Below are positions 44,193-63,994 of a DNA stretch of 64,000 bases, piece by piece. Numbering within the stretch: the first letter of the stretch is position 1; each line of letters starts with the position of its first letter. The stretch is from a virus: the IMG/VR virus record IMGVR_UViG_3300005253_000055; one strand, given 5' to 3'. The notes under the pieces were generated by a model that saw only the letters and a program-made list of their open reading frames with translations, was not told the origin of the DNA and searched no databases. Position numbers and translations under genes: made by a program.

Positions 44193-47100
44193 CTAGAATG
44201 TCTTCATATAGTTGATACGTTCTTCTAAATGCTTCAATCCCCTGATCTGATTCCATAATGGAACTACATCCAGTATCTTATCCCCTTTCCAACGTCCCTT
44301 CTTATCTCCCTTCTCATATCTCTGCCACTCGATACCATCAAAGGTAACGGCTGGTAGCATAGAGTATATTCCCTTACCTAACTTCTCTACTACACTGATA
44401 GTAGCCATAGGAGTTCTTAATATCTTACCTGCTTCTATAGGATTGATAAAGAACCATAGCTCTGAATTAAGTCTATATGCCTGGTACACGGCTAAGTCCC
44501 AGAAGAACCTCTTGACTGTTCCTTCCTCTGGTTCATCTCCAGCTTCTAAACTACTTAGAGCTGTTACAAAAATCAATGTTCCTAGCATCAAGACCCCTTC
44601 CTTTATAGTTTGCTGTATAAACATTTTTCTCCAAGCCGGCATTTCATTCCAGTTCTTACTACTAGCAGCAACTATTCCTCCCAATCTCTTATAATCCTGT
44701 ACTACTTCCATCAAAAAGTTTTTGGTAACTACATATCTACCCGGAAGATTAGCTCCAATTGCTTCATTGAATACTGTCTTACCTGCAAATTTCTCCCTAC
44801 CAAATCTAGCATCCCATCCTGGAGCTAACCATCGTCTAAAGAGCATACTCATTCTACCAAGGACTGTTCTTTGCCATACAGTTGTATCCTTTTTGTTATA
44901 GTTACCATGAAGGTGTCTGTAAAGCTCTTTAATCCTCCCTGCAAACTCATATAAGTCTTTAGACAGAATACCTCCTTCCACCAATATACTTCCATCATCC
45001 TTCTTAGATATACTGCTATAGACATCGGGTAGTTCGTTGAATACTTTCTTATTTGCTTTGTCCATAGGCTTATTGTGCTTCTCAGCCCAGTCCATGAAGG
45101 AGTATATCTTCCCTCCTTCTATTCTATGTGATTTAGCAAGAGACAGAGCTAGTTGAGTCTGCATCGTATGTTCCCCCATGTTGATCATAAACATGGAAGC
45201 TCCCATATTCAATCTTTTTAGTATTGACTCCTCCTTTAACGGATTACCAAATTCATCAAAGGTCTGGTATATATCATATGCTTCCATATATCTACCAAAT
45301 GTAGACTCTGTAAACCTTTTGGTAGTATCTGACATAAACTCAGGAAGTAATTTTATATACTCCTTAGTCGCCCATCTATAATCTGCACCAGTATAGAACA
45401 AGCCACCTGCCGTCATGATTGAGTTCATGAACTGACCTATTGTCATGTTATTAATTCCGGCTGACAGGTTGAATCCTAGTTGTAGTAATGCAGTAGATCT
45501 AGTTATTGTATCTAATACCTTAGCTTTATTAATCTTAGTTCCAAACAAGTCCCCCTCAAACTCCTTGTACTCCCCATATACAACCATGTCCAGATAAGAA
45601 CTGATTCTCCTATATGCATTAGATGTTCGAGGATTGATAGGAGATTGCTTTGGAGCAGGAGCACCTTCTGGAGTAACGGTTTTAATACTGCCCTTAGAGT
45701 CTACAACCGTTCTCATTCCTACTAAGTATTTGACTGCATGTAAATCAGGAGCTATAGAACTCATAGCACTGTAGTTCCTGCTCATGGTCATGAACCTAAC
45801 TAAGTTTGATACCATATCCAAAGAAATTGCATTAGTATCCATTCCATTTTCCCCTCCTACCGTACTAACATATTTAACAGGAACCAGTTTGAATGGTCGA
45901 TCCTGTCCATCTCTTCGTTCAATTGCATATTCCGTATTCTCTTCAGTTATCTGACTAGCCAATCTTAGTTCATGCTTCATAACACTAAGAGGCCCTTGAC
46001 CTTCTGACAATCGTTCTTGTGTTGGTTTAAGAATAGGTATAAGCTGATTACCCTTTCTATATATTGCAGGAAGCTTTTCTTGTGCACTTCCGTAAAACTT
46101 ATTGAAGAAAGTAATAAACTCCTGCTCCTCTTTAGCTAATTTCTTAAACTCGGAAGTTCCAGGAATAATATAATCTCCAGTAAGTTCTCCATCTTGCTTT
46201 ATAAGCATGAAGTCATAGAACTTTCTGTAATTAAATTCACTTACTCCTTGAGACTTCTTATACTTTCTAAGAGCTTCTGATTGTTTTTGTAACTCTCCAT
46301 GAACAAAGCTATTCATACTCTTTGCTATAATAGCTCTCTTACGTTCTACAGCCTTCGCTGTGAGAGCTAAGATAGGATCTACGGAACTAACCATTGCTCC
46401 GACCCGGTGCATTCCCTCTGTTATATCTTCACCTATGCTGTTAAGAGAATTACGTAAGTCCTCCTTAGTTAAATTCACATCTCTAGTATAAGGAAATAGA
46501 AACTCTACACTATTTTCCAGAGCTACTTCCCGGTATATAGATTGTACGTCCTGGACAGCCTTAAGTACTGGTGAAATATATTTATCTCTATATTGTCTGT
46601 CAATCTTTAATCCTTCCTCTCCAAACTCCCCATACATCTCCTTAAATCCTTCTTCGATTAATCCAAAGGAACTTGCATAATCTAAGAGCTTTTCAAGCTT
46701 CACTAGCTTCTCTCTAGGAGTACCAGCCGCAGCTTCTATCTCATCTAAGTCTTCTATTACGGCTCCCGCTTGGGCATTAGCGAACCGGGTATACTCTAGT
46801 ATACCCTCTTTATATTGTACTTCCTCAAGTCTTCTTTCCAATTGCTCCCTCAATTTAACGAGGCTTGCATGGCTTTTTCCCTCTCCAATTTGCCGCTTAT
46901 AGATCGCTAATTTGTGTTTGAGACTATCTATCACTTTTTGGAGAACGTCTAGCTGTCGTGAAATTTGATTATCTCTGGTGGCAAATACAGCGTATCTGAG
47001 TTCGTCAGATTCCGGGGCTATCTTACCCTCCTGTCTGTTCATAGCTTCTTGCGTCTTTCCAAACAACTCTTCTAAGACACTGCCACTTATATCAACTCCA

Positions 47101-50100
47101 AGTACAGTATTCAAAGCCTTGATCATAAGATCAACAAACTCACTCCATATTGTAGTGTTCTCTTTCTTACCTTCTATGTAACTCAGTTGCCGTTGGAAAT
47201 TTCTATCACTATATGCAGCAGTTATGAACTCCTCTGGACTACTCAATCCTTGATGATCCGCAGGAAACCTATCCGCTTTCTTAACTCTATCCAGCATATC
47301 TACTACCTCTGCACTATACTGTCCATCTCTTGATAGTAAAGGCATTGTTGCATAGTGTACAGCTTCATGTGTTAAGGCAAGAGTAAACTCCTCTATACCT
47401 AAATCCTCTCTGACTACCATACTCCGTTCTCGTAGATAGGCTAGAGCATCGGCCCTCTCTCCTTTTACTTTCTCCGTATTTACCTCAAAAGTCCCCTCCC
47501 TAAAGTCTACTTCTTCCCTTAATTTATCTATAAGTAACTGTATATCTTCATCAGCAGATAAAAAGTCAGTAGTATTAAAGAAGGTCTGTAGATTCATCTC
47601 CCCCTTTTGTCGTCTTCGAGTAGCAACAGTATTGGTTCTCAGTGAGAATATAATCCGATTATCTCTATCCTCATGTATATTATAGTTCTTTAACTTATAA
47701 GAATCTGTTATAATCTTCACTCTTTTAAATAGACCTTGGTCATTGAGCTTCTTAAGTAAAACTCTCTTATTAAGTCCTCTATCGAAAGCTACCATAGCTC
47801 CAGGCCAATCTGTTGTCACACCTAAGCCAGGAAGATACGTCTTACTTGACCCTCTTTTGGCAATAAATGACTTAGAAGTATCCTCATAAGATCCTCCATA
47901 AGGTACTAAGTCCTTAACGTGAGCATTATTTTCTATAAACTGCTCCATAAAGGGTTCCCCAAATACTTGTTCCTTCTCAAATTGTATCATGGAATCCCGG
48001 AAGTAGTCAGCCATAGACTCTTGAGTGAAAGAATACTGGGGATCACTCCATACTTCTATTGGTACTAAGTCAATGATTGAATCAACAGTAGGGGTCATAC
48101 CTTTGGAAAGAATAGTATAATGAATCAAGTTTTTTCCAAACTCTTTAGTTTCAGAATTTTTAAGAATCTCTCGGAAGGCAATTGTTAGATCATCTTGTTC
48201 TCTCTGAGATAATCCATATCCTCTTTCTACTGATACAGTATTGTATCTATTGTCCCTATCCATATTATCTCTATGAGGTAACAATCTAGCAAGTAGTCTG
48301 TTATCCTTCATAGCTGGCAGTTCCTTCACTTTTTGCAATTGTATATCAATCGAATTAGTTCCTACCAGTAGCTCTTGTACCTTCTTCTCCGTGAATAGAC
48401 CTTGTAACGGCCCCCCTTCTATTGTCATAAGCCAGAGGAAGGAGTCGTTGTTGATCAAGTTCATTTGATCTGCTGTAAGGTTATCTTTATTGAGATGAGA
48501 GACCATTCTACGCTTTATGTTAGTTAGTCCATCTCTAGTAAAAGGAAAGAACTGAGTTGAGAAATCTTTAGCCGCATTTATAACACCGTTAAAGGTTGAA
48601 GTCATTGGATAATCTCTTCCGTCTAGAACTCCTTCTACTCCTGTAATAATATCATTCCTTCTTTTTCTTCCCTCTCGTTCTTCTACTGGTGTACCATTTG
48701 TTACAGAGTCAATCAAGTCATCTCTTGCCTCAATAGCTGCAATAGTATTGATAGTTCCAGGAGTATCAGAACTAAAAACTCTGTTTACTTCTACTAACTT
48801 TCTCCCTGCTATATGAAGGAAATAGAAGGTAGATAGAAGTTCCATCTGTCCCTCAGCTTCACTTATCTCCTTTCCTATATTTCTTGCTAATACCTCTGTA
48901 TCTATATTATATAGCCGATCTGTTCTACCTCCTAGCTTTTCTATTAAACTCTTTAAGTTTGCTGGAGTATTATCCCCACGTAGGTATTTCGTAGTCAACT
49001 CTAGAATAACTGGTTGATTAGTTAGAAGTACTGCTAGATTATTAGCGGCTGCCTCCCATTCACTAGAGGCTACGTTAACTACACCTAGTCTTAGTAGTAA
49101 GTTAATGACAGGAGTAGTAAACTCATTATCATTAATAGATCCAAGTACAGGGTCTTTAGTATTATCTAAAGCCGCTGACAGTCTAATAGATAAATTGTCA
49201 GTAATCAAACGACCATTAGTATCCTTAACTCTATTGAGCTTAGTATACTTTTCTCCATCTACTATAACGGTGAAGTTACCTTGCAACCTTAACCCCCCAT
49301 CTGATCTAGCATATTGTCCGATAGTCTGTCCTTTTAAAGCACTAGCATAGGTACTGATACCCCTACTTGCTGCCTTATTACGTATACTCATTTCTATCTC
49401 TGTTCCCGGACTATTTACATTTGCAAAAGGGTTACCTTTTGACTTCTTGGGTCTGAGTTTATTTGCAGCTTCGGTTAATACAGAACTATCTACACTTTCC
49501 AACATTTCCTCTAAGTGAGCAGGATTAGTCAGAATCGAAGTATTAATATCTATTATCAGATTCTCAAGTCCTTCTCTAGTATTATCCTCTAAGTCTTCCG
49601 TGTTGTATTCAATCTTAGTTATAGTAGGATTAGTTGCACCTAGTCGTTGTTTTTCTGATTCTAGTTTGGATAAAGCATATTGTACTGATAGTGCGAAGTG
49701 ACCTTTGAATTTTTCGGGATATTCAAGGGCAATGTCCTTTGCACTTTCCGGTGTGTGCATTAAACGGCTTAGAATATGGCTCTCCGAGGAATCAAACTTA
49801 TAACCCTGTTTTTCTAAGGTGGCTGCAAAGTTACCCATTGGGTTCCACTTTTCCCCTGTCTTAGTAGTGTATTCCACTTTAGCATTAGGCATCATAAGGA
49901 ATACCTTATCCATATCGAAGTCTGTACCCATTTGAGTAGTGATCTCGCCAGGAACTAGGATTACCTTACCCATTGACTCAGGCAAAATTCTAACTATTCT
50001 AAGTGGAATCATAGAGTTCTTACCATGTCCAGGAATTCTATACCCCACAAGGGTTCTTAACTCTCCCGGTATCCCTTCAATATTCGTTATACCGAGTTTT

Positions 50101-53100
50101 TGAGCTAACTTATAAGGAAGAGCTACTTCGGCTCCTATTACCTTCCCATCTTTATTTCTTACAAACCCTAACTCTTTAGTTCCTTTTTCTTCCTGTACTC
50201 CTCCTAACTCTGCTATCTGTACTAAACTAGCACCGTTAATAGTCTGATTAATAACATTCTTCTTGAATAAAGAAAGTATTATCTGTTCAAATCTCTTCTG
50301 ATAAGCTGGAAATGCAAGGGGTAATTCAAAGGTAACATCATTCTCCGTTTTTATAATGTTTAAGGCCCTTTCATAATTCTCCGGTAAATCTCTCTCTTCT
50401 ATACTCCTCTTTATTACCCTTCCTAAGTTCGTATAAAACTTCTCTTTCTCTTCCAACCCCTTTATCTCTTCTTTAATAATCTGAACTTGATCTGGATGAT
50501 AAACTACAATTTCGTCTACGTCCTTAATACCATAAGTAGTCTTAGTCTTAGCTTCTGCATCCGTAGTTACCCACTTTGAGATATTTAATTTTACCTCATA
50601 GATATGTGTACCATAGACCTTAGCATCTTCTCGTGTAAGCGCAAAGTTTATTCCTCGTCCTTCATGTGCTTTACCTTGAAGACTCAGATCGAAGTTCTTT
50701 ATATCCGGACTGTTCGACCCATGATAATACGTCTCTTGTGTAATAGAATTAGGAAAAGGAGTTTCTGTAACAATTTCTTTAGTATAACCTAACTGCTTGT
50801 TTAAATCGTCAAGTGACCTACCTACAAGTTGTTCTGTTACATTATGATAAAGATCAAAGAGTTCTTCTCCCCCTATCTTCTTACCGCCTAAGATGTATCC
50901 CTGTGTCCATTGTCCTTTCTTACCTCCAACTTCATCTGACAGCATATTAGATATTATATGCTTCCTTGCCTGAGTACTCATCATAACAGGCTTATCATTT
51001 TCCGGAACTATCTGAGGAATCCTTTGAAACCTTGTTTCTAACTCAACTGTTTTCCAGTTACTAAGATCATCATTTATATCCTTTATACCACTGAGATCAA
51101 GACCAACCTTTCGGGCTGATTCCATGTTAACCTCGTCTATTCCCTGCTCCTCCATCGCCAGTCTCAGTTTCTCAAAAGCAGGAGAGGCTTTAGTAAATTC
51201 TCTAAGAAGAGGAAAGACAACGTGTTTATCTACAACCCGAACTACTCTGTTATCAACATCTAAATGGAATCCATCATAGATAGTTTTAATAGGATTTAAC
51301 AAAGGTCTTATTCCATCTGGAGTTACAAATTCCCCTCCAGCTTGATAATTCTTATAAGCTGCTTCGTGTTCATCAAGCCATGTTCCTTGCCCCTCCATCT
51401 TATGCCTGTGCTTATCTAAACTAATAAAGCCCATCGAGTCTGTTTTATTAGCCCCCTTTCTATTAGGATTACCGGGTTCTTTTCTATAAGGAGCGATAAC
51501 CTTTGCAGCTTCCTCAGTCGTAGTAGGAATAATCTTTTCAAGCCCGTCCAGTGTCTCAATATCCTCTTTAAATACATCCTTAAGAATAGAAGTAGTGTAC
51601 GTCCTCTTGTCTCCATAAGAGTCATTTAAGTCACTTAACTCCAGAGTTTCCATACCAGGAGTGGTAAGGGTTGCTGCTCTCTTATTAAAGTTATCGTAAT
51701 CAGTATAAAAAGCCAAATCCCCTGCTATCAATCTCCTAAGTTCATTTTTAACTATAATGTCAGAAATCACATAATCTCTAACCATCTCCCTCCAAGGATC
51801 TGTGTTCTTATCTGCTGGATACAACTTCCTCCAGTCAGGAGATACCGACTTCTTGTTTATCTTAAGGTTGTCTAATCTTGCTAATTCCGTAGTTAATTCA
51901 TTTTCAATAAATTGATTAATCTCCTTTTGAAGATCTCCCATGAGATTCTTATTAGCATCAGTAGCTAACTCAACTTCAATCTGCTTTGCAGTCATATCTT
52001 CAACCATCTTCCGAATTTGCTGTGCAGTCTTAGATTTATTAAGAAAGGGGAGTAAAGTGAATTGCTGAGAGTTCTCTGTATAGTTCTTATATGTACTAGG
52101 AGTTCTTTTCTCCCTCTGCATCTTAGCAATATCTTGATAGAAGTAACTCATTAACATAGCTCTAACACCCATTGTATAGGTATTATGTTTGAGACTATCT
52201 TTCATACTTAGTCTAGGTACTACTGCAAACAGTAACTTCGACCTATCAGCAAAGAGGGGAAAGGCTATATGCATTACGTTTGGAGCCGCACCATTGACAA
52301 AAGCATTGTATCTTAAAACAGTTTCGTCTATCTCATTTAGGTTAGCAAATGTCTTCTTAGCTTCTATTTCTCCTTTGCGTTTATATGCACTGAATTGATA
52401 CTTGCGAAGGATTCGTCTAAACTCCGGTTGCTCTAAGATTTGATCTAAGAATATAGATTTATACAATCTATTACCTGTAGGATTATACCATACATCCTTA
52501 TCGTACATTTCTACGAAGCTAGATCCTTCCTTCTTAAACTCCTCAAATACCCTATCAAGAGTACTAGGCATGTTTATAGGATAAACTGTCTTCCCCTCTT
52601 CATTTATATAGGAGTCTGTAGTGTTAGATTCAAAGTTCTTTTGTACTGAAATAGGACGGGTAAGGATACTTATATCTACATCATAGATATTCTGACCGTT
52701 CTTTAAGTCAGTGACTAGCTTACTAAACCCATATGTTTCCCCTATTCCTATAATATATCTGTATAAATTAGCACCAGAATAGTAACTTCCATCTGCCTCA
52801 ACACCAGTTTCAAGTGCTAGTTCTAGGTTTTCTTGACTAATATCAGCACCTATAATCTCTAAGAACTCCTGAAGAACGGGAGCTCTCTTAAGTACCTCAG
52901 ATAGATCTTCAATTACCTTTGCTCTATCCTCTAAAAGAGGAAGCAAGGTTTCAAGTTTCTGTACCTGTCTCTGATCAACTTCATACTCTAGATTCTCTCC
53001 CTTAATAAACAAGTTGTCCTTTGCATTCCCTCTCCATCTCTCTAATATACGTCCCTCTGGTCTGGAAGCATTACTGTTGTAGGATCTTACAGTGACAGTC

Positions 53101-56100
53101 TTTGTATCGTCTTCATACGTCTCCTTCTCTATAAAGCCCATAAACTCATTAGAAACTAACATCATGTTTCTATAAAAATCTGCCATGAGTCTGGGATCGT
53201 ACTCTGGAGAAGACACCTCACTCTTTCTCCTCAATGCTTCTCCTACCTTTCGGAGCTTCTCTAGTTTAGACGATGTTAGTCTAAATATTGCATCTTCAAG
53301 TTTCCTTGAAGTCGTTGTTATTTGTAAGACATCTGAGTATAGCTCATTGAAAGGTAGGTAGTTATATTGTTTCTTTTCAGGAGTTGAAAGATAACTTTCC
53401 TGATCAGTTTTTATAGTAGATAGAAACAACTTAACTTGACCACTCAGTTTATCTTTCATTGATTCTTCTAAATGAGAACCGATAAGATGATCTTTCTCGT
53501 ATCTTTCAGGATCATCTGCTGCTTCTACATCATCATATCTTACCCTATGACCAAACTCTTTTAATTGTCTCTCTGCTTCTTCTCTCCATCCTCTTCCCTC
53601 TGGAGGTAAGTTCCCGTAAGGTTGTTCACTTGTATTCCAATTCTCATATATATGTCTGAATAGGAAGAAGTTCTTACTAAGTCTTACTCCTTTACTTGTT
53701 TGCATAATCTTTAAAGACGGAACAGTAAAGGATTTTATTGAATCATAAACCTTCTTGGCCTCGTCTACACCTAGATTATTACCTGTCTTAGCATCCAGAA
53801 TAGCATTACTAAGTAAGCCATTACGTATCCTTTCGTAGGTTATGAGAGGAGACTCTACTCTGCCTTCCGCAGCAATCTTCTTCTGCTCATCTAGAAATGC
53901 CGAGTTGATAGTTCTAAGAAGATCCTCCTTAGCTTGAGAGCTAACAGAAAACTGCAGGGAGAATACTGTATTGAAGTCACCCTCAGGGCCTAGTATGTCC
54001 GCCGGCTCCTCTTTTTCTAGCGGGGCTTCTCCAAGTGTAATATCAGAAGGCTTCCCAATGTTCTCTTCTAACAAAAGTTGTATGTCCTGGTATATACTAC
54101 CATTCTTGTTTACAGCATTCGTTAGAAGAATACCGCCAGCAGGATGTTCCTTAGATGAAGTTAGATAGTTAATATAACTATCGTAGGTATCGTCAAAGGT
54201 TACTCTACTCTTATACTTTCCTACACTATTTATTAAGTCCTTTCTTACATTATATCTCTTGTTTTTAAGAAAGTTTCTTAGATTTTGTTCTATAGGATAA
54301 GTACTTATAGCTTTACTAGATATAAACTTCTCAGTTTCTTCATCGTACTTTTGAGGATAAACCGTTCCCTTAACCTTTGTTAGTTCTTCCTGATCTATCT
54401 TTATAACTTCTCCCTTTCCACCTTTTCCAGCAGATGTAGTATCATTAAAGAGAATAAACATTCCTTCCGTTCCTTCTCTTACTTGAAGGAAGAACTTATT
54501 ATCTCTAGTCTCTATAGCAGAATCCGTAAACAAAATATGTTCCAACTCCGTTATGTCCCCTTTTCTTAAAAGATTGATCGCTGTATCTACAGCATCATCA
54601 GATAGGAAAGAGGTATGTAGTTGAAGTGCTTTATATATACCGGATGGAGACATAAAGGCTGTATAGATAAGTCCCTGTTTTGACATTTCTGGACCGCCTT
54701 CTAAATAGACTGCTCCAAGATCCGAGATCATCTTCTCGTCACTGAGATTACTTTTGTCTAATTCAATCTTTGTACCTTCTGCAAACTGACTACCTTTAGT
54801 GGTAAGTATAGTAAGAGGAACTGACTCTAATTCAAACTTATTTCCCTTCTTCGGAACCCATTGAGTTTGGAGAGTGGTTATAGAAATATTAGCTCTAGGA
54901 ACGGTCATGATGTTTGCGTTACCAACTACCTTGCTATAATCTCTATGGTTTTGATTATCTTTGGTAGTAGTACGCATTTCCACTTTCTCACCTGCCTGAA
55001 GTCTGCGGTATAATTCCTTTCTCCCAAGATTGATCGATTCTCCTTCTACTTCCTTATTCCCTGCTAACTTAGCAGCTCTGATTCCACTTTCTTTTATTAC
55101 TACGAAGATAGGATGTTGATTCCATTCTTCTCCTTTAAACTCTTCTTTATGCTCATCCCACCACTTGCTTTCTCCTTCTTTTACTAACTCTAGTTCTACA
55201 ACAGTACCAAGAGGTAGGTTAGGACTAGCTATAATATCCCAATTAATTTCTTCTTCTGGATTAGCTACGATTGGTTCACCATTCGCTAAGACAATTTTCT
55301 TGTCGTAGAACTCTCCTTCGTTTTTATAGTAACCTCCAGATGTAAGTACAGTAGTAGAAGATGTTTCTGGTTTTGTCTTAGGTTCATAGGTATCAGGTGC
55401 AGTTTCTTGACTACGCTCCAGAGCGTCTTCTATCTGTGGAGCTACAATCTCTATATCCTCTCCTGTTATAATCCCAAGCCCCTCTTCTACCATCTCCTGT
55501 TCTCGGTCAGTAATTTCCTTAAGGAGTTTTTCTTTCTGTTCTAGTGTTTCTTCTGTAGTTATATCTATTACGTTACCTGTCTCCGGATGTTTCCAAAGTT
55601 GTACTCCCCCCTCATCATACTCCTTTATATAACCTTGTTCTATTAACTCAGTATCTGTAAGTGGAACTTCGGTAGGAGAAACATGCTCTTCTACTAATTC
55701 ATCTATAGCCTCCTGAGCTTCTTCACTAGTAGTCTCTTTTTTTAACTCTTCTAGAGTCTCAGGTTTTGTCCCTTCAAGGTCTTTCTTTACCCGTTCCTTT
55801 GTTGTTGCTTTCTTTTTCTCTCTTTCTGATTTAATCCTAGCTGCCTCTTCTTTGACAGCCTGTTCTGTTGCCTTTTCTTTACTTTCTAATCTCTTTAGCA
55901 TAGACTCTCGACTAGCTTCTGCGATCTTAGCAGATTGTATTTTATTTCTAGCTTCCGTAAGAAGTTTACTTCGATCTGCTACACTAAGCTCATTAAAGTT
56001 CTCAAATTGCTCATTAAGGTAATCGGCAACTTCTTTCCTAGCTGCCAACTGTTTCTTAGTTATATCTTCCTTCAACATTACCATTACCTCACTATTCTCA

Positions 56101-57983
56101 GCAATATTGAGTTCATTGAGATATTTTCTGGAAACCAGGTTATTCAACTGATCATGACTTACTACATTATATAGTAACTTTTGATCTTCCTCGGTTGGCT
56201 TTAGTTTGTCGTACTCTGTCTGTATAGACTTAAGATCTACCTTGGCTTGTTTAAGTTGCTTTGTTAGATCTGTTTTTTCCTTCTTCTTTGCTTGCTCTAA
56301 ATTCTTTTCTAAGATTTGAATTCCTCCTTTTACTCCCATCTCAGTACGGAGAAGCTCCGCTGCCAATACTCCATCGGCACTCAACTTACTTATGTCCAGA
56401 GACTTAAGACTTATATCCGCCATTTGTTTGCTGACCTTTCCATTCTGGGCTAGTAACTGTTCATTTTCAAACTGCCTTCTAACAAGAGAATCTGTTATCT
56501 TAGGGCCATGCTTATTTATACTAGCATCCCACAATTGACCTATTCTCTTAGTATTAGCTATAATAGTATCAATTGATTGGATATACTCAGGAGAGAAATC
56601 AGCTTGTTCCTCTTTAGGAGCAGTCTTAAGGATACTGAGATCTTCTACCATCTTGTCTATCTCTCCTAGTGAGGCATTCTTGAGAGCTAGTTCTGCCATC
56701 ATCTGATCTCTGGTAAACTCTGCGTTATAAGGATCATCAGTCTTTAACGATTCTACATAGGCATTATTTGCTTGTATGAAGGATGCTTGTCTAGTATTAA
56801 TTGCATCTATTCTAGCATCGTCATAAGACTGTTCACCTGGCTTTACTCCACGCTCAAACAGTTTTTGCTTTAACCCTCGTCCTGCTGTCTGCATAACACC
56901 AGCACCGATAGCACCAAAGAACATAGCAGTGTGCATCTCAGGTTCTTTAAGATACTGTCCTATTCTATCATGAAACTCTGAATCTTCTGCTAATCCATTC
57001 CTAAGATCAGCTAGGTATTTACTCTCTCTTGCAACTACGTATTGATAGCCTTCTTCAAAACCTTCACCAGCCATATCAATTCCTATTGCTGTTGCCATTT
57101 TCCTTCTACTAACTCCTAGTGAACCTATATCCCCCACACCCTTAGATGTTTTTGTTGATCTAGCAGTAGCCGATTTCCCAATACCTCTAGATAGTAACAT
57201 GTACTGTGGTATGTCTTGAAGAAGCATAGCGTAGTTAGCTATGTATGAAGTATGCGCAGCTTCTGAAGCAATTGATCTAGCCTTATCCTCATTTCCTGTT
57301 TTCCTAAGAGCATCATCATAGGTCTCTTTCCATGTCTGACTAGCTTCCATCATATTCTCCATATGTCTGGAAATAGTAGCCTGTGCAATAGGTTCGGCAA
57401 ATCTCATAACTCTGCCCATCTTTGTGCCTATTCCCATCACCTTTCCTAATGCGGCAAGTCCTCTCGTAGCTCCTACAGCTGGTAACATAAGAGATATAGA
57501 ACTAGCTATACTTGAGCCATTAGCAGCCCACCATTCAAAGGATAGAGGATGAAATCCACCTGGATCGTGCTCATACACGGGAGTAACTTCCTTAGCTCCT
57601 TCCCTGAGCCCCTTACCTATATCTGATAACCAATTACCCCACTCATCATTTTGTCCTTTAACTGTCTCTGCTATTTCTTGAAAGTCTAGGAGATAGCCTA
57701 TACCTTCTAGTGTTCCACCAAGGAGTTCCCCTACAATAGTTTGATTAGCAAATCCCCCAAGTTCACTTAAGAAACCCTGTTGTTCTGCTCTGAATATTCC
57801 TCTATCTCCGGCGGTAGGTAGATATCCTACATCATATCCAGATACATCTCCCCTATAACCTAAGGGGTCAAAGTCATTAGTAGGAACACTAGAACTTCTC
57901 TTACCAAATAAAGCTTCTTCATTCTTCTCCTTATCTTCAACTAAAGGAGTAGAACTTCTTTTACCAAATCCAGAATCTTGCAT
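44193..57983 (-). CDS. giant virion-type RNA polymerase polyprotein (two-barrel RNAP with ART-like and metallopeptidase-like modules)
   Basis: Uninterrupted 4,596-aa ORF. TLVGYRIPGHGKNSMIPLRIVRILPESMGKVILVPGEITTQMGTDFDMDKVFLM parallels the beta-prime segment ...NRAPTLHRLGIQAF...NADFDGDQMAVH. TAATG coupling to the upstream gene. Confidence 0.75.
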   Translation of the reverse strand: MQDSGFGKRSSTPLVEDKEKNEEALFGKRSSSVPTNDFDPLGYRGDVSGYDVGYLPTAGDRGIFRAEQQGFLSELGGFANQTIVGELLGGTLEGIGYLLDFQEIAETVKGQNDEWGNWLSDIGKGLREGAKEVTPVYEHDPGGFHPLSFEWWAANGSSIASSISLMLPAVGATRGLAALGKVMGIGTKMGRVMRFAEPIAQATISRHMENMMEASQTWKETYDDALRKTGNEDKARSIASEAAHTSYIANYAMLLQDIPQYMLLSRGIGKSATARSTKTSKGVGDIGSLGVSRRKMATAIGIDMAGEGFEEGYQYVVARESKYLADLRNGLAEDSEFHDRIGQYLKEPEMHTAMFFGAIGAGVMQTAGRGLKQKLFERGVKPGEQSYDDARIDAINTRQASFIQANNAYVESLKTDDPYNAEFTRDQMMAELALKNASLGEIDKMVEDLSILKTAPKEEQADFSPEYIQSIDTIIANTKRIGQLWDASINKHGPKITDSLVRRQFENEQLLAQNGKVSKQMADISLKSLDISKLSADGVLAAELLRTEMGVKGGIQILEKNLEQAKKKEKTDLTKQLKQAKVDLKSIQTEYDKLKPTEEDQKLLYNVVSHDQLNNLVSRKYLNELNIAENSEVMVMLKEDITKKQLAARKEVADYLNEQFENFNELSVADRSKLLTEARNKIQSAKIAEASRESMLKRLESKEKATEQAVKEEAARIKSEREKKKATTKERVKKDLEGTKPETLEELKKETTSEEAQEAIDELVEEHVSPTEVPLTDTELIEQGYIKEYDEGGVQLWKHPETGNVIDITTEETLEQKEKLLKEITDREQEMVEEGLGIITGEDIEIVAPQIEDALERSQETAPDTYEPKTKPETSSTTVLTSGGYYKNEGEFYDKKIVLANGEPIVANPEEEINWDIIASPNLPLGTVVELELVKEGESKWWDEHKEEFKGEEWNQHPIFVVIKESGIRAAKLAGNKEVEGESINLGRKELYRRLQAGEKVEMRTTTKDNQNHRDYSKVVGNANIMTVPRANISITTLQTQWVPKKGNKFELESVPLTILTTKGSQFAEGTKIELDKSNLSDEKMISDLGAVYLEGGPEMSKQGLIYTAFMSPSGIYKALQLHTSFLSDDAVDTAINLLRKGDITELEHILFTDSAIETRDNKFFLQVREGTEGMFILFNDTTSAGKGGKGEVIKIDQEELTKVKGTVYPQKYDEETEKFISSKAISTYPIEQNLRNFLKNKRYNVRKDLINSVGKYKSRVTFDDTYDSYINYLTSSKEHPAGGILLTNAVNKNGSIYQDIQLLLEENIGKPSDITLGEAPLEKEEPADILGPEGDFNTVFSLQFSVSSQAKEDLLRTINSAFLDEQKKIAAEGRVESPLITYERIRNGLLSNAILDAKTGNNLGVDEAKKVYDSIKSFTVPSLKIMQTSKGVRLSKNFFLFRHIYENWNTSEQPYGNLPPEGRGWREEAERQLKEFGHRVRYDDVEAADDPERYEKDHLIGSHLEESMKDKLSGQVKLFLSTIKTDQESYLSTPEKKQYNYLPFNELYSDVLQITTTSRKLEDAIFRLTSSKLEKLRKVGEALRRKSEVSSPEYDPRLMADFYRNMMLVSNEFMGFIEKETYEDDTKTVTVRSYNSNASRPEGRILERWRGNAKDNLFIKGENLEYEVDQRQVQKLETLLPLLEDRAKVIEDLSEVLKRAPVLQEFLEIIGADISQENLELALETGVEADGSYYSGANLYRYIIGIGETYGFSKLVTDLKNGQNIYDVDISILTRPISVQKNFESNTTDSYINEEGKTVYPINMPSTLDRVFEEFKKEGSSFVEMYDKDVWYNPTGNRLYKSIFLDQILEQPEFRRILRKYQFSAYKRKGEIEAKKTFANLNEIDETVLRYNAFVNGAAPNVMHIAFPLFADRSKLLFAVVPRLSMKDSLKHNTYTMGVRAMLMSYFYQDIAKMQREKRTPSTYKNYTENSQQFTLLPFLNKSKTAQQIRKMVEDMTAKQIEVELATDANKNLMGDLQKEINQFIENELTTELARLDNLKINKKSVSPDWRKLYPADKNTDPWREMVRDYVISDIIVKNELRRLIAGDLAFYTDYDNFNKRAATLTTPGMETLELSDLNDSYGDKRTYTTSILKDVFKEDIETLDGLEKIIPTTTEEAAKVIAPYRKEPGNPNRKGANKTDSMGFISLDKHRHKMEGQGTWLDEHEAAYKNYQAGGEFVTPDGIRPLLNPIKTIYDGFHLDVDNRVVRVVDKHVVFPLLREFTKASPAFEKLRLAMEEQGIDEVNMESARKVGLDLSGIKDINDDLSNWKTVELETRFQRIPQIVPENDKPVMMSTQARKHIISNMLSDEVGGKKGQWTQGYILGGKKIGGEELFDLYHNVTEQLVGRSLDDLNKQLGYTKEIVTETPFPNSITQETYYHGSNSPDIKNFDLSLQGKAHEGRGINFALTREDAKVYGTHIYEVKLNISKWVTTDAEAKTKTTYGIKDVDEIVVYHPDQVQIIKEEIKGLEEKEKFYTNLGRVIKRSIEERDLPENYERALNIIKTENDVTFELPLAFPAYQKRFEQIILSLFKKNVINQTINGASLVQIAELGGVQEEKGTKELGFVRNKDGKVIGAEVALPYKLAQKLGITNIEGIPGELRTLVGYRIPGHGKNSMIPLRIVRILPESMGKVILVPGEITTQMGTDFDMDKVFLMMPNAKVEYTTKTGEKWNPMGNFAATLEKQGYKFDSSESHILSRLMHTPESAKDIALEYPEKFKGHFALSVQYALSKLESEKQRLGATNPTITKIEYNTEDLEDNTREGLENLIIDINTSILTNPAHLEEMLESVDSSVLTEAANKLRPKKSKGNPFANVNSPGTEIEMSIRNKAASRGISTYASALKGQTIGQYARSDGGLRLQGNFTVIVDGEKYTKLNRVKDTNGRLITDNLSIRLSAALDNTKDPVLGSINDNEFTTPVINLLLRLGVVNVASSEWEAAANNLAVLLTNQPVILELTTKYLRGDNTPANLKSLIEKLGGRTDRLYNIDTEVLARNIGKEISEAEGQMELLSTFYFLHIAGRKLVEVNRVFSSDTPGTINTIAAIEARDDLIDSVTNGTPVEEREGRKRRNDIITGVEGVLDGRDYPMTSTFNGVINAAKDFSTQFFPFTRDGLTNIKRRMVSHLNKDNLTADQMNLINNDSFLWLMTIEGGPLQGLFTEKKVQELLVGTNSIDIQLQKVKELPAMKDNRLLARLLPHRDNMDRDNRYNTVSVERGYGLSQREQDDLTIAFREILKNSETKEFGKNLIHYTILSKGMTPTVDSIIDLVPIEVWSDPQYSFTQESMADYFRDSMIQFEKEQVFGEPFMEQFIENNAHVKDLVPYGGSYEDTSKSFIAKRGSSKTYLPGLGVTTDWPGAMVAFDRGLNKRVLLKKLNDQGLFKRVKIITDSYKLKNYNIHEDRDNRIIFSLRTNTVATRRRQKGEMNLQTFFNTTDFLSADEDIQLLIDKLREEVDFREGTFEVNTEKVKGERADALAYLRERSMVVREDLGIEEFTLALTHEAVHYATMPLLSRDGQYSAEVVDMLDRVKKADRFPADHQGLSSPEEFITAAYSDRNFQRQLSYIEGKKENTTIWSEFVDLMIKALNTVLGVDISGSVLEELFGKTQEAMNRQEGKIAPESDELRYAVFATRDNQISRQLDVLQKVIDSLKHKLAIYKRQIGEGKSHASLVKLREQLERRLEEVQYKEGILEYTRFANAQAGAVIEDLDEIEAAAGTPREKLVKLEKLLDYASSFGLIEEGFKEMYGEFGEEGLKIDRQYRDKYISPVLKAVQDVQSIYREVALENSVEFLFPYTRDVNLTKEDLRNSLNSIGEDITEGMHRVGAMVSSVDPILALTAKAVERKRAIIAKSMNSFVHGELQKQSEALRKYKKSQGVSEFNYRKFYDFMLIKQDGELTGDYIIPGTSEFKKLAKEEQEFITFFNKFYGSAQEKLPAIYRKGNQLIPILKPTQERLSEGQGPLSVMKHELRLASQITEENTEYAIERRDGQDRPFKLVPVKYVSTVGGENGMDTNAISLDMVSNLVRFMTMSRNYSAMSSIAPDLHAVKYLVGMRTVVDSKGSIKTVTPEGAPAPKQSPINPRTSNAYRRISSYLDMVVYGEYKEFEGDLFGTKINKAKVLDTITRSTALLQLGFNLSAGINNMTIGQFMNSIMTAGGLFYTGADYRWATKEYIKLLPEFMSDTTKRFTESTFGRYMEAYDIYQTFDEFGNPLKEESILKRLNMGASMFMINMGEHTMQTQLALSLAKSHRIEGGKIYSFMDWAEKHNKPMDKANKKVFNELPDVYSSISKKDDGSILVEGGILSKDLYEFAGRIKELYRHLHGNYNKKDTTVWQRTVLGRMSMLFRRWLAPGWDARFGREKFAGKTVFNEAIGANLPGRYVVTKNFLMEVVQDYKRLGGIVAASSKNWNEMPAWRKMFIQQTIKEGVLMLGTLIFVTALSSLEAGDEPEEGTVKRFFWDLAVYQAYRLNSELWFFINPIEAGKILRTPMATISVVEKLGKGIYSMLPAVTFDGIEWQRYEKGDKKGRWKGDKILDVVPLWNQIRGLKHLEERINYMKTF
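47184..47426 (-). other. zincin-like HExxH metallopeptidase module inside the giant ORF
   Basis: LALTHEAVHYATMP (H3539-E-x-x-H3543; codons at 47355-47369), with SPEEFITAAY 41 residues downstream. Confidence 0.45.
49908..49922 (-). other. DxDxD catalytic metal-binding motif (D2688, D2690, D2692)
   Basis: The minus strand reads GAC TTC GAT ATG GAT, encoding DFDMD. Confidence 0.7.
50475..50740 (-). other. ADP-ribosyltransferase-like module (H-Y-E pattern) inside the giant ORF
   Basis: YYHGSNSPDIKNFD...GRGINFALTREDAKVYGTHIYEVKLNI...VDEIVVYHPDQVQII, with H2421, Y2457 and E2491. Confidence 0.5.
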
Positions 57984-59728
57984 TACTTGTTTTTAGTTTT
58001 GTATACGTCTAGAATGTCTGATAGTAGATCAGCAAAGTTACTATATTCTAAGTTATAAGTCTTTCCATCAAACTCTTCAATAAAGTATCCACTTGTCTCT
58101 ACTTGACCTTGTGAATTTCTTCTTGTCTTCTTTCGTCCCTTTATCTTCATTTCGGGAAGTACCTCCCCCTCATTAGTTATACCAGGAGTAGTATCAAATA
58201 GATTAAACAGGGAAGTAGTAGCTATGTTTTGAACTTTAGGACTTGACTCACTCATAACGTACTGCTTCTGTCCTGTACTAGTACGTATATTAACTACATT
58301 TCCATCTAGTATAGAAGGGTTATCAGCTATATTTCCTAAATAGCTAATAGGATTAAGTCCTCCTACATAGGTAAGATCTTCTAAATCAGAATAGAGTTCG
58401 CTTCTTTCTTCCTTCCTCACCTGTTTAATATTGCTAAGATCATCTATTTCAAAGAGCGTCCTTTGTAAAAAAGCAGCAGTTAATTCATCCTCCTTGTTTC
58501 GTCTAATTGCTGGATCACTTGTACCAATGATATAATTTTGACTAACTCCAGGAAGTACATCCTTTTGATACTGATCCCACATATCTAGCATAGAGGAGCT
58601 AGTATAATCAAAGTTTTTAGGTGCTTCTTCTCCTGTCATTACTCTAAATACTTCAGAACTCTTATCTAAGTATTCCTTATTAAGTTTTATATTACTCTCC
58701 TGTTGAACAGTCTCATCAAATTTTCCTCCTATACTTGTATCAGCAAGAAACTTTGAGTACTCAGTAAGTGACTCTACGTCACCTTTAAACTGAACTGCTG
58801 ATCTAGGATTAAACCCAAACTTAGTCTTAATGCTAGGTTTTACTGGTATATCCCCTAAACGTTCTAATGTCAAAGTACTTGGATCCCCTGGTTTCTCTAC
58901 TCTATTCAGGAAAGAAGGAAAAGAATAGGAACTTATATCATTGCTACGAACTTGTCTGGAAGCTACACCCTGTAAGTAGGTCAGTACACTCATCTCTTTT
59001 TCCTCTTCTGTCATCTGTCTTCCTAACTGTTCCTCATGTACCCTCAGAAGTTGTTTTCCTTCATCTGAATTTAAGAAGTGAAATATAGACTGTTTAGCTC
59101 TCTCATCTGTTCTGGCCTCTGTTACTCTTCCTGTATATCTTCCTGTTCTTATACCAGCAACAGCATCATCAAATAATGAAACTAATTCTGGTGGCATTTC
59201 CCCGCTCTCCCCTAATATCTTACCTAAAGACTTTTCTGCCTGTCCTAACCAATCTAACTGTTGCTGTCCCCCAAATCGTCCAGGTATATATCTACCAGTC
59301 TCGGGATTAATAGTAGTTGTTGGATCTCCTGTATCAAAGAGTAGACTTTCACCTGCAAAATCAGCCTGTTGTCGTAGTTTCTGTGCCTGCTTGTAGTTTG
59401 CGGAAGTCTGGGCAAGGGCTAGTAGTCGGGGGTCACTAACTAACTGCCTAGTCAGTCCTCGTGCCCTTGTTTGAAAGTCAGGATTATAAAGACCTCCCTT
59501 GGAGGAGTCTATCAACTCCCTATATGCTTGATCAACCCCCCCTGCGATCTCACTTCTCAGTTCAACGTCCCCAGGAGCTACATCCAATGTACCGAAGTAA
59601 TCAAGGATAGTTTGCTCTTGTTCAGAATTTTTTGCGTACCTATTCTCCATTGTTCCGAGTAGGTTACCAAATTGATCCACAGGCTGCTCTTGACTAGCAT
59701 ACTGCGTTGGTCTAAATTGTAAAGGCAT
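57983..59728 (-). CDS. virion-module protein, function unknown
   Basis: 581-aa ORF, translationally coupled (TAATG) to the giant gene. Confidence 0.65.
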   Translation of the reverse strand: MPLQFRPTQYASQEQPVDQFGNLLGTMENRYAKNSEQEQTILDYFGTLDVAPGDVELRSEIAGGVDQAYRELIDSSKGGLYNPDFQTRARGLTRQLVSDPRLLALAQTSANYKQAQKLRQQADFAGESLLFDTGDPTTTINPETGRYIPGRFGGQQQLDWLGQAEKSLGKILGESGEMPPELVSLFDDAVAGIRTGRYTGRVTEARTDERAKQSIFHFLNSDEGKQLLRVHEEQLGRQMTEEEKEMSVLTYLQGVASRQVRSNDISSYSFPSFLNRVEKPGDPSTLTLERLGDIPVKPSIKTKFGFNPRSAVQFKGDVESLTEYSKFLADTSIGGKFDETVQQESNIKLNKEYLDKSSEVFRVMTGEEAPKNFDYTSSSMLDMWDQYQKDVLPGVSQNYIIGTSDPAIRRNKEDELTAAFLQRTLFEIDDLSNIKQVRKEERSELYSDLEDLTYVGGLNPISYLGNIADNPSILDGNVVNIRTSTGQKQYVMSESSPKVQNIATTSLFNLFDTTPGITNEGEVLPEMKIKGRKKTRRNSQGQVETSGYFIEEFDGKTYNLEYSNFADLLSDILDVYKTKNK

Positions 59729-59730
59729 AT

Positions 59731-62163: not shown

Positions 62164-62211
62164 ACTAAGATCTGTTTAAGAATTATTTACGTATACTAAT
62201 ATAAGATATAA

Positions 62212-62228
62212 AGTTGGAGTTTCCAACT
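62212..62228 (-). terminator. hairpin downstream of the 269-aa gene
   Basis: AGTTGGA-AAC-TCCAACT on the minus strand, followed by TTATATCTTATATT. Confidence 0.35.
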
Positions 62229-62259
62229 CTATACCATTTCTTTAATAACTACGTACGGT

Positions 62260-63069
62260 CTACTGAGTTTCTAAGTAATAAACATTAGCAATTAGCTCAC
62301 CAGCACTGATATTATCCCAGTCTGCACCACCAGTTATAGTTATTCTAGGTGTCTGTACAGCAGCCATTCCATCTGCACCATCAGTAGCAGGAACAGAACC
62401 AACAACACCAGCTGCAAGTACTGATTGATCTACGTTTAAAGTAAATCTATCTAAATCACTAGATACACCACATTGAATTATTGCAGTAGTGTCGCCTGTG
62501 AACCCAGTAGTAACTTCAAACCTACAGCCTAATGGAATACCACCAACAGGAACGTCTGTACCAAGATCTATATTTCCAAGAGCAGTTCCTGTCTCATTAG
62601 TGAAAGCACCAAATGCTACTGTCTCTGTTATAACTCCTATCTTCGGAACAGCCAACTTAGCGACAGTCCATATATCATCAGCAAATAACGCACGAGTTGC
62701 GGCATTATCTGCAAATGCACCATCTGCAACCTTCAATAAAAGAGTAGCAGCATCAACAAAATCTGTTGCTACTAAAGCTCTACCAGGTGCATCAGCAGAC
62801 AATATACCTGCTATTAACTTTGTATTAGGAATACTACCAGCTAACTTAGTAGCTAGAATACTACCCGCTAAGTTAGCAGATGTAATACTACCTGCTAATT
62901 GAGCATTGGTAATAGAACCGGCTCCTATATCCGTTGCTGCGTTAAAGAACTCATCATACATAGCGTCGATTATGTCTGTAACAGCGTCTAAAGCCTCGAC
63001 TCTTGACTTAGAGGTAAGTCCTTGTTGTTTTACCTTTGCAATTTTTGCTTTTAATATTGATTCACTCAT
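62260..63069 (-). CDS. structural protein with 9-aa tandem repeats (fibre/decoration-like)
   Basis: 269 aa, Ala/Gly/Thr-rich, visibly GC-richer; LAGSITSAN/LAGSILATK/LAGSIPNTK repeats; own hairpin downstream. Confidence 0.6.
   Translation of the reverse strand: MSESILKAKIAKVKQQGLTSKSRVEALDAVTDIIDAMYDEFFNAATDIGAGSITNAQLAGSITSANLAGSILATKLAGSIPNTKLIAGILSADAPGRALVATDFVDAATLLLKVADGAFADNAATRALFADDIWTVAKLAVPKIGVITETVAFGAFTNETGTALGNIDLGTDVPVGGIPLGCRFEVTTGFTGDTTAIIQCGVSSDLDRFTLNVDQSVLAAGVVGSVPATDGADGMAAVQTPRITITGGADWDNISAGELIANVYYLETQ
62830..62937 (-). repeat. 27-bp in-frame tandem repeat, about 4 units
   Basis: Units at 62830-62856, 62857-62883, 62884-62910 and a degenerate one at 62911-62937, each beginning AATACTACC (plus strand). 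Confidence 0.7.
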
Positions 63070-63086
63070 TTTCTTAAAGTTTAAAT

Positions 63087-63752
63087 TTATAGTTTAGTTT
63101 CTTCTTGTATAGAGAATAATCCTTCTATTACATTGCTTATACGTTCTAACATCAAGTTAGCTGTAGTTGTAGCTGTAGGGTCATAAAGTTCTAGCTTATC
63201 CTCCATCTTCTTTTCTATTAACCCCAGCTTCTTAACAGCATCAGCATAAGATAGCTTATTAAATCCGTTAGTAAATCCATTTTCCTCTAAGTAGTCTACA
63301 GCTTCACTAGGTAGCTTCCTTCTCTTGGAAAATACCATCTCTCCAGAAACCGCTTCCATACTTTCTAATTCTATATCTTCTTGTCCATCCTGATTTACAT
63401 CAACGCCAATGCCCCCTTGCTCATGTGAATTCCCGGTAAGAAAAGATACCCCGGATGAAATCTGGTTTAAGCCACCTCCACCAAGTATAGTTGCAGGAGT
63501 ACCCGGCAACCTGATCCCCTGAGCAGCCGTAGCTCTAATTCCCTCTGTATTGTTATAGTTATTGTATTGTTCTAATTGGCTAAGGTCACTTTGATACAAA
63601 GCACCTCGATCTGTCTCTCTCCGATCCCGTCTGTCTCGATTATCCTGGTCAAACTGCTGTTTCTGCTGTACAAGCTTCGATATAAAACTCAAGGCTACGC
63701 CAGCAAATCCTTTTCTACTAGTTCTCGTTTTACGTCTTTTATAATTGCTCAT
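63087..63752 (-). CDS. virion-module protein, function unknown
   Basis: 221 aa; basic N-terminus, Gly-rich centre (GNSHEQGGIGVDVNQDG). Confidence 0.6.
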   Translation of the reverse strand: MSNYKRRKTRTSRKGFAGVALSFISKLVQQKQQFDQDNRDRRDRRETDRGALYQSDLSQLEQYNNYNNTEGIRATAAQGIRLPGTPATILGGGGLNQISSGVSFLTGNSHEQGGIGVDVNQDGQEDIELESMEAVSGEMVFSKRRKLPSEAVDYLEENGFTNGFNKLSYADAVKKLGLIEKKMEDKLELYDPTATTTANLMLERISNVIEGLFSIQEETKL

Positions 63753-63994
63753 CTTGGTACTATATCAAAGTTTGAACTCATTTCCCATATATTGATGTCT
63801 TTATCCTGTACATCTGTATACTTAAAGGAGATCTTCATATATCTATCTTGTAGATCTATATTGTCTCCACTATTTCTAAACCCGTTATGGTTCCATGCAG
63901 ACTTTACTCGTCTAGTATTTGCTGTGAGCATATCAACTAAGTCTGTATACTGTTGTACGGCTATCCAACCAGTATCTTGCTCTGCGGTCTGCAT
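63749..63994 (-). CDS. hypothetical protein (may extend beyond the right edge)
   Basis: 81 aa from the first Met; the frame stays open to position 64000. Confidence 0.45.
   Translation of the reverse strand: MQTAEQDTGWIAVQQYTDLVDMLTANTRRVKSAWNHNGFRNSGDNIDLQDRYMKISFKYTDVQDKDINIWEMSSNFDIVPR

Follow-up and report, generated by a model that had tools for sequence, protein, structure and literature searches.

An ADP-ribosyltransferase (ART) carried on an injected phage RNA polymerase (RNAP) is a concept already known from N4-like phages. Iyer et al. (2017) defined the ART family from a prototype joined to the virion RNA polymerase of an N4-like phage, Roseovarius Plymouth podovirus 1, described its site as H-Y-D and proposed that it acts in the manner of Alt as viral transcription begins (PMC5512222). 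The ART-PolyVal family (PF18760) belongs to the Tox-ART-HYD2-like clade and occurs in polyvalent proteins (PMC5512222), and T4 Alt is an ART delivered from the capsid with the DNA that acts at the onset of infection (PMC5512222, PMC9503650). On the polymerase side, gp66 of phage phi14:2 has two double-psi beta-barrels (DPBB), a Connector (residues 1095-1238) that joins them and the catalytic motif 1361-DFDID-1365; it is packaged and injected, and the packaged state is self-inhibited and needs relief (bioRxiv 10.1101/2020.03.07.982082). Here we analyse a stretch of 64,000 nucleotides from IMG/VR virus record IMGVR_UViG_3300005253_000055 (the window), in which a giant open reading frame (ORF) combines a two-barrel polymerase of the gp66 type with a small ART-like module placed between its barrels.

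44193-57983, minus strand: giant ORF of 4596 amino acids, from the ORF list and its translation
50448-50777, minus strand: inserted ART-PolyVal-like module, residues 2403-2512, a compact six-strand ART core with two short linkers

The giant protein resembles the Plymouth podovirus 1 protein in that a homologous ART sits in a very large, probably packaged protein together with an RNAP and a putative HExxH peptidase-like region. However, the Plymouth polymerase is a T7-like single-subunit enzyme whereas that of the giant protein is of the two-barrel crAss/QDE-1 type, and the Plymouth ART is an accessory domain beside the RNAP module while the one described here is internal, in the core linker. 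Compared with the PF18760 prototype, the ART of the giant protein is also about 64 residues shorter, has Asn in place of the strand-2 Tyr and lies below the Pfam threshold. The first-pass annotation of this DNA, made from the sequence alone, knew of no description of such an arrangement. That view has to be given up, as there is precedent both in Iyer et al. (PMC5512222) and in other crAss-like polymerase blocks (see below). For the association with a crAss-like two-barrel polymerase, the insertion in the Connector and the minimal H-N-(Y)-E form of the site, we found no description in the searchable literature.

The same annotation drew a parallel with T4 Alt, of which the functional part holds. 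The proposed logic is shared, as already suggested for the N4-like case (PMC5512222), and the resemblance is functional only: no Alt-like match for the module was found in Pfam, the PDB or BFVD, and its strand-1 residue is His, so it does not fit the Arg, Ser-x-Ser and Glu site of the Alt/ModA/ModB (R-S-E) family. T4 Alt, which modifies host RNA polymerase, is a separate internal head protein and not a polymerase part. It belongs to the R-S-E clade of ARTs.

Sequence evidence for the module family

Searches that start from the module itself give very little. A Pfam scan of the whole 4596-residue protein and of the excised module found no ART match even at E<=10, a PHROG scan of the module segment found no match, a single-sequence search with the module alone in an index of 5.8 billion proteins returned nothing, and in a tblastn search the module matched none of 50,697 GenBank phages. 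Taken by themselves, the empty Pfam, PHROG and single-sequence searches would suit an unrelated, lineage-specific loop whose motifs resemble those of ARTs by coincidence. With the direct scans empty, the family link was obtained only through profiles of relatives, and the Pfam search against ART models that the first-pass annotation had called for thus failed as a direct scan and succeeded, with PF18760, at the level of profiles.

When the polymerase was used as the query in the same index, the only close matches were two metagenomic proteins, P0001 and P0002, which carry the module at their own N-terminus and match solely over it, at 57-61% identity. A profile of three module sequences, searched against 1.84 billion representatives, retrieved 157 proteins at E<=1e-3. 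Among the 108 short proteins of this set, 101 matched PF18760 ART-PolyVal (best E 4e-38), 46 matched DUF3990 and 8 matched PARP. A profile of 12 short-form sequences collected 381 proteins, and about 85% of the top 120 were PF18760, with E-values down to 1e-21. With a local hidden Markov model (HMM) built on 74 standalone members the giant protein reaches 65.8 bits, and hhalign joins the module subgroup to these 74 members with a probability of 99.8% (E=1.6e-29). The latter comparison is partly circular because the 74 were retrieved with the module's own profile, while their PF18760 membership is independent of it. The nearest relatives (P0003, P0007, P0008 and P0153) reach 26-28.5 bits on PF18760, over model positions 7 or 8 to between 66 and 89 only; the gathering score of this model is 31.2 bits, and the module of the giant protein falls below it.

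The profile searches, the profile-profile alignment and the fold comparison given below converge on ART-PolyVal and PARP, so that coincidental likeness is effectively refuted. By these profiles, residues 2403-2512 belong, in a minimal and divergent form, to the ART-PolyVal branch within the H-Y-[ED] (PARP/diphtheria-toxin-like) superfamily and are homologous to bona fide members of that branch. The assignment to the H-Y-E clade and to the type found in polyvalent proteins, which had been proposed from motif spacing, is borne out by three independent lines: the sequence profiles, the fold and the position of the module. The module does not have the full-length architecture of PF18760, which spans about 140 model positions and has a helical segment after strand 3, ahead of the GYDG strand. 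This segment, positions 87-150 in the 181-position local HMM, is passed over in the giant protein, and hhalign shows the same gap.

Structural model and active site

The residues discussed in this section are encoded as follows.

50715-50732, minus strand: strand beta1 TYYHGS, residues 2418-2423, with H2421, the NAD-binding His of the triad (codon 50721-50723)
50640-50660, minus strand: strand beta2 GRGINFA, residues 2442-2448, with N2446 at the canonical triad Tyr position
50610-50624, minus strand: AKVYG, residues 2454-2458, with Y2457 (codon 50613-50615), equivalent to the Tyr of tankyrase SNQY
50586-50606, minus strand: strand beta3 HIYEVKL, residues 2460-2466, from the model
50466-50534, minus strand: strands beta4 YGIKD (residues 2484-2488), beta5 EIVV (2491-2494) and beta6 VQIIKEE (2500-2506), from the model
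50511-50513, minus strand: codon of the candidate catalytic residue E2491, within DEIVVY, residues 2490-2495

The motifs from which an ART had first been suspected all stand at the residue numbers given for them (YYHGS 2419-2423, GRGINF 2442-2447, AKVYG 2454-2458, DEIVVY 2490-2495, and QVQII ending at residue 2503, which is window position 50475). The range originally proposed, 50475-50740, has the right location and too small an extent, the domain being wider at 50448-50777 (residues 2403-2512).

An AlphaFold2 model built from 123 sequences has a mean predicted local distance difference test (pLDDT) score of 82, above 90 in the core, and a predicted template modelling (pTM) score of 0.73. Its strands fall at residues 2418-2423, 2445-2448, 2460-2466, 2484-2488, 2491-2494 and 2500-2506, and the module as modelled has the split beta-sheet core of six strands that defines the ART superfamily. 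The 50 best matches in a Foldseek search of the PDB are without exception catalytic domains of tankyrase 1/2 (E 1.6e-3, probability 1.0, template modelling (TM) score 0.45-0.53). In BFVD the top matches are proteins named "PolyVal ADP-ribosyltransferase" (E 5.6e-5), PARP-like proteins are also found, and the matches include an N4-like virion RNA polymerase (rank 20) and gp80 of the crAss-like phage cr130_1. The comparison with PARP cores that the first-pass annotation had asked for thus came out in its favour at the level of the overall fold of the predicted model. Although PARP/tankyrase catalytic domains are the best structural matches to the module in the PDB, sequence identity is 15-20% and the TM score only about 0.5; the module, with under half the size of these domains, lacks the helical and acceptor subdomains and has Asn for the triad Tyr.

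What the module and the ART-PolyVal family share with PARP/tankyrase is the register of HG[ST], of G-x-G-x-[Y]-F-[AT] and of a second Tyr eleven residues further on. A profile search of the PDB gave only sub-significant PARP/tankyrase matches (E 0.5-2.7), and we used them for the register and not as proof. The family consensus lYHGS...GpGiYFtddiedAkrY aligns with tankyrase LFHGS...GAGIYFAENSSKSNQY and also with PARP10 LYHGT...GKGVYFA, which places N2446 at the triad Tyr position. The catalytic trio first proposed, H2421, Y2457 and E2491, therefore stands in its first and last members, whereas Y2457 is by this alignment the second, nicotinamide-stacking Tyr, and the predicted site reads H-N-(Y)-E.

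The alignment columns show how far these residues are kept. H2421, which aligns with tankyrase LFHGS and PARP10 LYHGT, is His in 122 of the 123 homologs. The N2446 column holds Tyr in 82, Phe in 18, Trp in 14, Asn in 5, His in 3 and Met in 1, and Asn is common only to the closest relatives (P0001-4, P0006-8 and P0153). At Y2457 the column has 68 Tyr, 37 Phe and 4 Trp, and the following G2458 is Gly in 104 of the 123. The strand-1 His (in HG[ST]) and the strand-5 acidic residue (D2490-E2491) of the H-Y-[EDQ] signature are both in place, and the 12 members of the short-form subgroup keep D2490 and E2491 almost without exception. From motif similarity only, E2491 would be the equivalent of the PARP catalytic Glu E988: we take DEIVVY of the module to be the counterpart of PARP NEYIVY, given the similar E-[IY]-[IV]-V-Y strand. 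The Asp column of the conserved GYDG motif is occupied by Y2484 in the giant protein.

A side observation concerns W2471 in ISKWV (residues 2468-2472, window 50568-50582, minus strand). This Trp is kept together with N2446 in the six closest module copies (the giant protein, P0001-4 and P0006), while most of the family has Pro or Leu there; the Trp may be an aromatic residue that makes up for the lost Tyr.

The polymerase and the insertion site

The polymerase part of the giant protein and the segments that flank the module are located as follows.

47601-52274, minus strand: RNAP-homologous span, residues ~1904-3461, with both barrels, the Connector and the bridge-helix/trigger-loop region
49908-49922, minus strand: DFDMD, residues 2688-2692, metal-binding motif of the catalytic barrel DPBB2, aligned with gp66 1361-DFDID-1365
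50778-51026, minus strand: Connector-equivalent segment upstream of the insertion, residues ~2320-2402, approximate, from BLASTP (giant 2066-2403 to gp66 858-1171)
50199-50447, minus strand: Connector-equivalent segment downstream of the insertion, residues ~2513-2595, approximate, from BLASTP (giant 2520-2996 to gp66 1166-1657) and a MAFFT alignment of the junction

The sole match of the protein in a phmmer search of PDB sequences is the phi14:2 virion RNA polymerase gp66 (6VR4), with E=4.5e-23 and with alignment on both sides of the module. Using tblastn, residues 1830-2930 matched 120 phage records at about 26% identity, mostly crAss-like with a few Flavobacterium and Cellulophaga phages, and every one of the matches listed falls in a gene that is annotated as a putative RNA polymerase. 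In IMG/VR, 482 relatives were found with an alignment-based scan. In the closest of these, L007 and L011, tblastn with residues 1900-3500 found 35% identity over about 1550 residues, covering 1904-2402 and 2513-3456. The span is further supported by BLASTP to gp66, crAss001 gp50 and the RNAP of the related contig L001, and the C-terminus of the L006 RNAP aligns with residues 3257-3461. Pattern scans of IMG/VR and JGI metagenomes with the single protein found no close relatives, and megablast of the region against the 50,697 GenBank phages found no match.

With homology to gp66 and the DFDxD motif both present, the host protein of the module is, as judged from its sequence, a crAss-like two-barrel virion RNA polymerase. 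It shares with phi14:2 gp66 (6VR4) and crAss001 gp50 the two barrels, the DFDxD motif, the Connector and a downstream bridge-helix/trigger-loop region; the fusion to neighbouring proteins that is present here is also known for some phages. We note that the fourth position of the motif is Ile or Val in crAss-like RNAPs (Drobysheva et al., bioRxiv 10.1101/2020.03.07.982082) and that the Met found here is a further variant, while the giant proteins P0123 and P0073 have the cellular-type DFDGD.

The alignment to gp66 breaks at about 1166-1171, within the Connector, and the module has no gp66 counterpart. In 12 IMG/VR relatives examined, including L007 and L011, homology ends at residues 2394-2406 of the giant protein and restarts at 2510-2523, and the same site holds only about 6-25 codons, so that neither gp66 nor these relatives have a domain there. 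Similarly, 114 GenBank crAss-like RNAPs match the giant protein only from residue ~2516 on. None of the 80 IMG/VR loci examined has an ART at the Connector site. The gp66 mapping and the relatives agree with the claim, made before any search, that the module lies between the two RNAP barrels, and the survey of homologs that had been proposed as a check gave a clear result in that the insert is absent from all 12. The module is a clean insertion into the Connector that links the two DPBB barrels, where it would occupy a surface loop. Taking family, fold and location together, we have little doubt that an ART-fold domain related to ART-PolyVal is inserted between the barrels.

The insertion is old. 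Compared with the copy in L001, the module has 0.37 nonsynonymous substitutions per site (dN) and about 2 synonymous ones (dS, saturated), so dN/dS is about 0.2 or less, and the combination of saturated dS with low dN points to an old insertion under purifying selection. Its base composition is that of the rest of the gene, with matching G+C content (GC) and third-position G+C (GC3), and no repeat longer than 7 nt was found at its junctions. We considered a recent transfer of the module and rejected it on the matching GC and GC3, the lack of such repeats and the saturated dS to L001. A second ART copy in the giant protein was likewise rejected, as the HMM scan finds a single module, with no second copy left in the ORF at the ancestral position.

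ART-PolyVal domains around related polymerases

The cargo block that contains the polymerase has recruited ART-PolyVal domains repeatedly, which are found beside, after or upstream of the polymerase in relatives and inside the core linker here. In L001 and L006 (both metagenomic) and in cr130_1 gp80 the ART is at the N-terminus of a protein downstream of the polymerase. The last (UniProt A0A7M1RT64) scores 96 bits on PF18760 and bears the UniProt label "ART-PolyVal-like". L001 is a related 99-kb metagenomic crAss-like contig; its RNAP (2266-9510) has NADAR as the last domain (residues 2207-2321, E=5e-15) and is set apart by a ferritin-like gene (9503-9997) from the ART-bearing protein P0002. 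In L032 (IMG/VR) the polymerase ORF (1486-9876, 2796 amino acids, DFDID at 1675) has a C-terminal ART-PolyVal-like domain (8989-9591) whose strand-1 His is replaced by Arg (VYRGV), and in L025 the ART is in an ORF further downstream. P0123, a metagenomic protein of 5558 amino acids, has within residues ~2660-3153 a full-length ART-PolyVal (35.5 bits) directly followed by NADAR (49.4 bits), about 280-490 residues upstream of the DFDGD barrel motif at 3149; from its sequence this looks like an independent ART insertion adjoining the catalytic barrel. P0073 (5837 amino acids) has two ART copies far upstream.

Among the closest parallels are P0001, P0002, P0004, P0007, P0141 and cr130_1 gp80, which have the same module in the same gene block. 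In the first three the module is 57-64% identical to ours while the remainder of the protein is only 21-27% identical, and in all five apart from gp80 this remainder is homologous to the C-terminal third of the giant protein. In these downstream proteins the ART is the terminal domain of a separate protein, whereas the giant protein is the product of three fused genes, with its ART relocated to the Connector.

Two observations on cr130_1 (L004, NC_055901.1, positions 1-23426) are added here. Its 5801-residue RNAP polyprotein, annotated as 'DprA-like DNA recombination-mediator protein', contains 73 in-frame stops when read with genetic code 11, and gp80 contains 32. Some crAss-like phages are reported to reassign stop codons, and these counts agree with that.

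The location inside the core linker of the polymerase, rather than at a terminus, raises the question of whether the ART could act in cis on the transcription complex, modifying template DNA, nascent early transcripts at their 5' ends or the polymerase, in the last case perhaps to release a self-inhibited packaged state of the kind found in gp66. The pairing of ART-PolyVal with NADAR in sister lineages (in tandem in P0123, at the RNAP C-terminus in L001) would fit this reading, since NADAR replaces Macro in DarT-DarG-like toxin-antitoxin systems and is predicted to free ADP-ribose from macromolecular conjugates (PMC9503650). However, the window contains no NADAR, the nearest structural relatives of the module are protein-modifying PARPs, and in most relatives the same module is N-terminal on a different protein, so that nearness to the polymerase active site is not required. 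We regard action in cis as improbable.

Proposed function

The reading we prefer is that the module is an active ADP-ribosyltransferase that is injected and acts early on host targets, to which we assign a probability of roughly 0.6 from the predicted site, the model and the analogy with described systems. In this mechanism, modelled on phi14:2 gp65-67, the polyprotein would be a late product that enters the capsid and passes into the cell together with the DNA. The polymerase part would then transcribe the early genes while the tethered ART would bind NAD+ through H2421, the HG backbone and Y2457, and E2491 would promote the transfer of ADP-ribose onto a host macromolecule at the start of infection, as for T4 Alt and as proposed for N4-like virion polymerases. 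The host-modifying enzyme and the polymerase would probably enter as one molecule.

Several observations weigh against this reading. Besides the empty Pfam scan already described, the strand-2 Tyr (G-x-G-x-Y-F) of the H-Y-[EDQ] signature is replaced by N2446, and about 64 residues of the usual helical segment are absent right after strand beta3. In the 123 sequences of the wider IFPxSK...HILGSK branch the E2491 column has 71 Glu, 19 Ser and 5 Asp, and with Glu in only 71 of 123 parts of this branch may be non-catalytic. The Foldseek E-values are modest and come from a model built on an alignment of ART-PolyVal homologs. The closest polymerase relatives do without the module, which makes it an accessory. 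Neither NADAR nor Macro nor any other partner that handles ADP-ribose turned up when 74 window ORFs were scanned with Pfam, and a PHROG scan of the genes adjoining the giant ORF found no match. Finally, packaging of the polyprotein in the virion is probable by analogy with phi14:2 gp65-67, and both packaging and injection are drawn from these distant homologs only.

Much of this would also be expected if the module were a pseudo-enzyme that has kept the ART fold and lost the transfer reaction. It might then sense NAD+ or ADP-ribose by binding and so regulate the polymerase, serve in protein contacts or packaging, or simply ride along, inert, in a Connector loop that tolerates it. The canonical beta2 Tyr is Asn here and varies between Asn, Asp, Met and Tyr among the short-form relatives, the 64-residue segment of the family model is deleted, the Glu column is just 58% Glu in the wider branch, the L032 variant has Arg for His, the module has no direct Pfam match and it is wholly absent from the closest relatives. 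What makes us think this main rival unlikely, while still deserving serious attention, is that H2421, the aromatic residue at 2457 and D2490-E2491 are kept throughout the subgroup that has Asn, that purifying selection on the module is strong at the dN/dS given above, and that the contrast between module and flanks in the downstream proteins (57-64% against 21-27% identity) is more conservation than a passive linker needs. In diphtheria toxin and exotoxin A, moreover, the first Tyr is the less critical of the two. Because the module is kept under purifying selection, N2446 and the loss of about 64 residues have probably not abolished the function of the active ART that we favour, and would more probably have altered its substrate range or regulation. 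The first-pass annotation had named the lack of a family hit, of the fold or of conserved site residues as grounds for dropping the ART call; instead the ART-family link, the ART fold and the retention of the site residues in the Asn subgroup were all found.

The polyprotein and its surroundings

The giant ORF is laid out as an N-terminal part, the RNAP core and a C-terminal HExxH protein, the last with these features.

44205-47393, minus strand: C-terminal cargo-protein part, residues 3531-4593, from BLASTP to P0001, P0002, P0004, P0007 and P0141
47355-47369, minus strand: HEAVH, residues 3539-3543, an HExxH motif in the C-terminal cargo part

By homology it is a crAss-like virion RNA polymerase fused to flanking cargo-type proteins, which makes three normally separate proteins of the cargo block. 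Fusion of gp65-, gp66- and gp67-type proteins into one polyprotein occurs in some phages (Drobysheva et al., bioRxiv 10.1101/2020.03.07.982082), and the gp66 neighbours gp65, whose orthologs have a zincin domain, and gp67 are virion proteins (bioRxiv 10.1101/2020.03.07.982082). In L007, the closest IMG/VR relative, the polymerase (2978 amino acids) and the downstream protein (1209 amino acids) are separate ORFs, and by BLASTP the C-terminal third (3531-4593) is homologous to separate proteins of 1456-2212 amino acids in other phages. For the HExxH region, the homologs P0001 and P0002 have weak SprT-like matches; an AlphaFold2 model of residues 3440-3700 from a three-sequence alignment reached a pLDDT of 36, which is unusable. 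For the N-terminal ~1900 residues no homolog was detectable in phi14:2 gp67 or in the upstream protein of L001. When phi14:2 gp67-gp71 were compared by BLASTP with the giant ORF and the genes upstream of it, nothing matched, so that gene-by-gene synteny with phi14:2 is not demonstrable at the sequence level.

The window has 37% G+C. On the plus strand lie phage replication genes in a block (for a family A DNA polymerase, DnaB-type and superfamily 2 (SF2) helicases, primase, ligase and uracil-DNA glycosylase (UDG)), and on the minus strand there are large genes. The family A DNA polymerase ORF (1140 amino acids, window 18757-22179, plus strand) is apparently interrupted by a homing element, as a PHROG endonuclease match at residues 784-899 is flanked by polymerase matches, and Intein_splicing and LAGLIDADG_3 Pfam matches occur among the window ORFs, without assignment to a single ORF. 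No homologs of the NADAR and ferritin genes of L001 were found in the window by tblastn. One of the 74 window ORFs scanned (129-43987 or 57983-63994) has an Acb2/Tad1 hairpin domain (Pfam, E=2.6e-7). Phage sponges of cyclic-nucleotide and NAD-derived immune signals have this hairpin fold, and by this match the phage may carry a second tool for conflicts related to NAD+ or ADP-ribose.

Implications

Few viruses of animal guts are as abundant as crAss-like phages, which are also present in environmental viromes, including marine ones; to our knowledge, the way in which their injected polymerase takes over the cell is poorly understood. The locus described here extends the theme of an ART joined to a polymerase, earlier described only for the T7-type virion polymerases of N4-like phages, to two-barrel polymerases, and it points to ADP-ribosylation as a general tool for takeover or counter-defence in the first minutes of infection. 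If the module were to act in cis after all, the NADAR domains of L001 and P0123 would be the matching erasers, and the polymerase would have a built-in ADP-ribosylation directed at nucleic acid or at itself. At about 90 residues the module is among the smallest ART cores seen and, if active, would define the minimal requirements of the H-Y-E clade. An active module would also provide a simple, excisable handle for the identification of the first host targets of a crAss-like phage.

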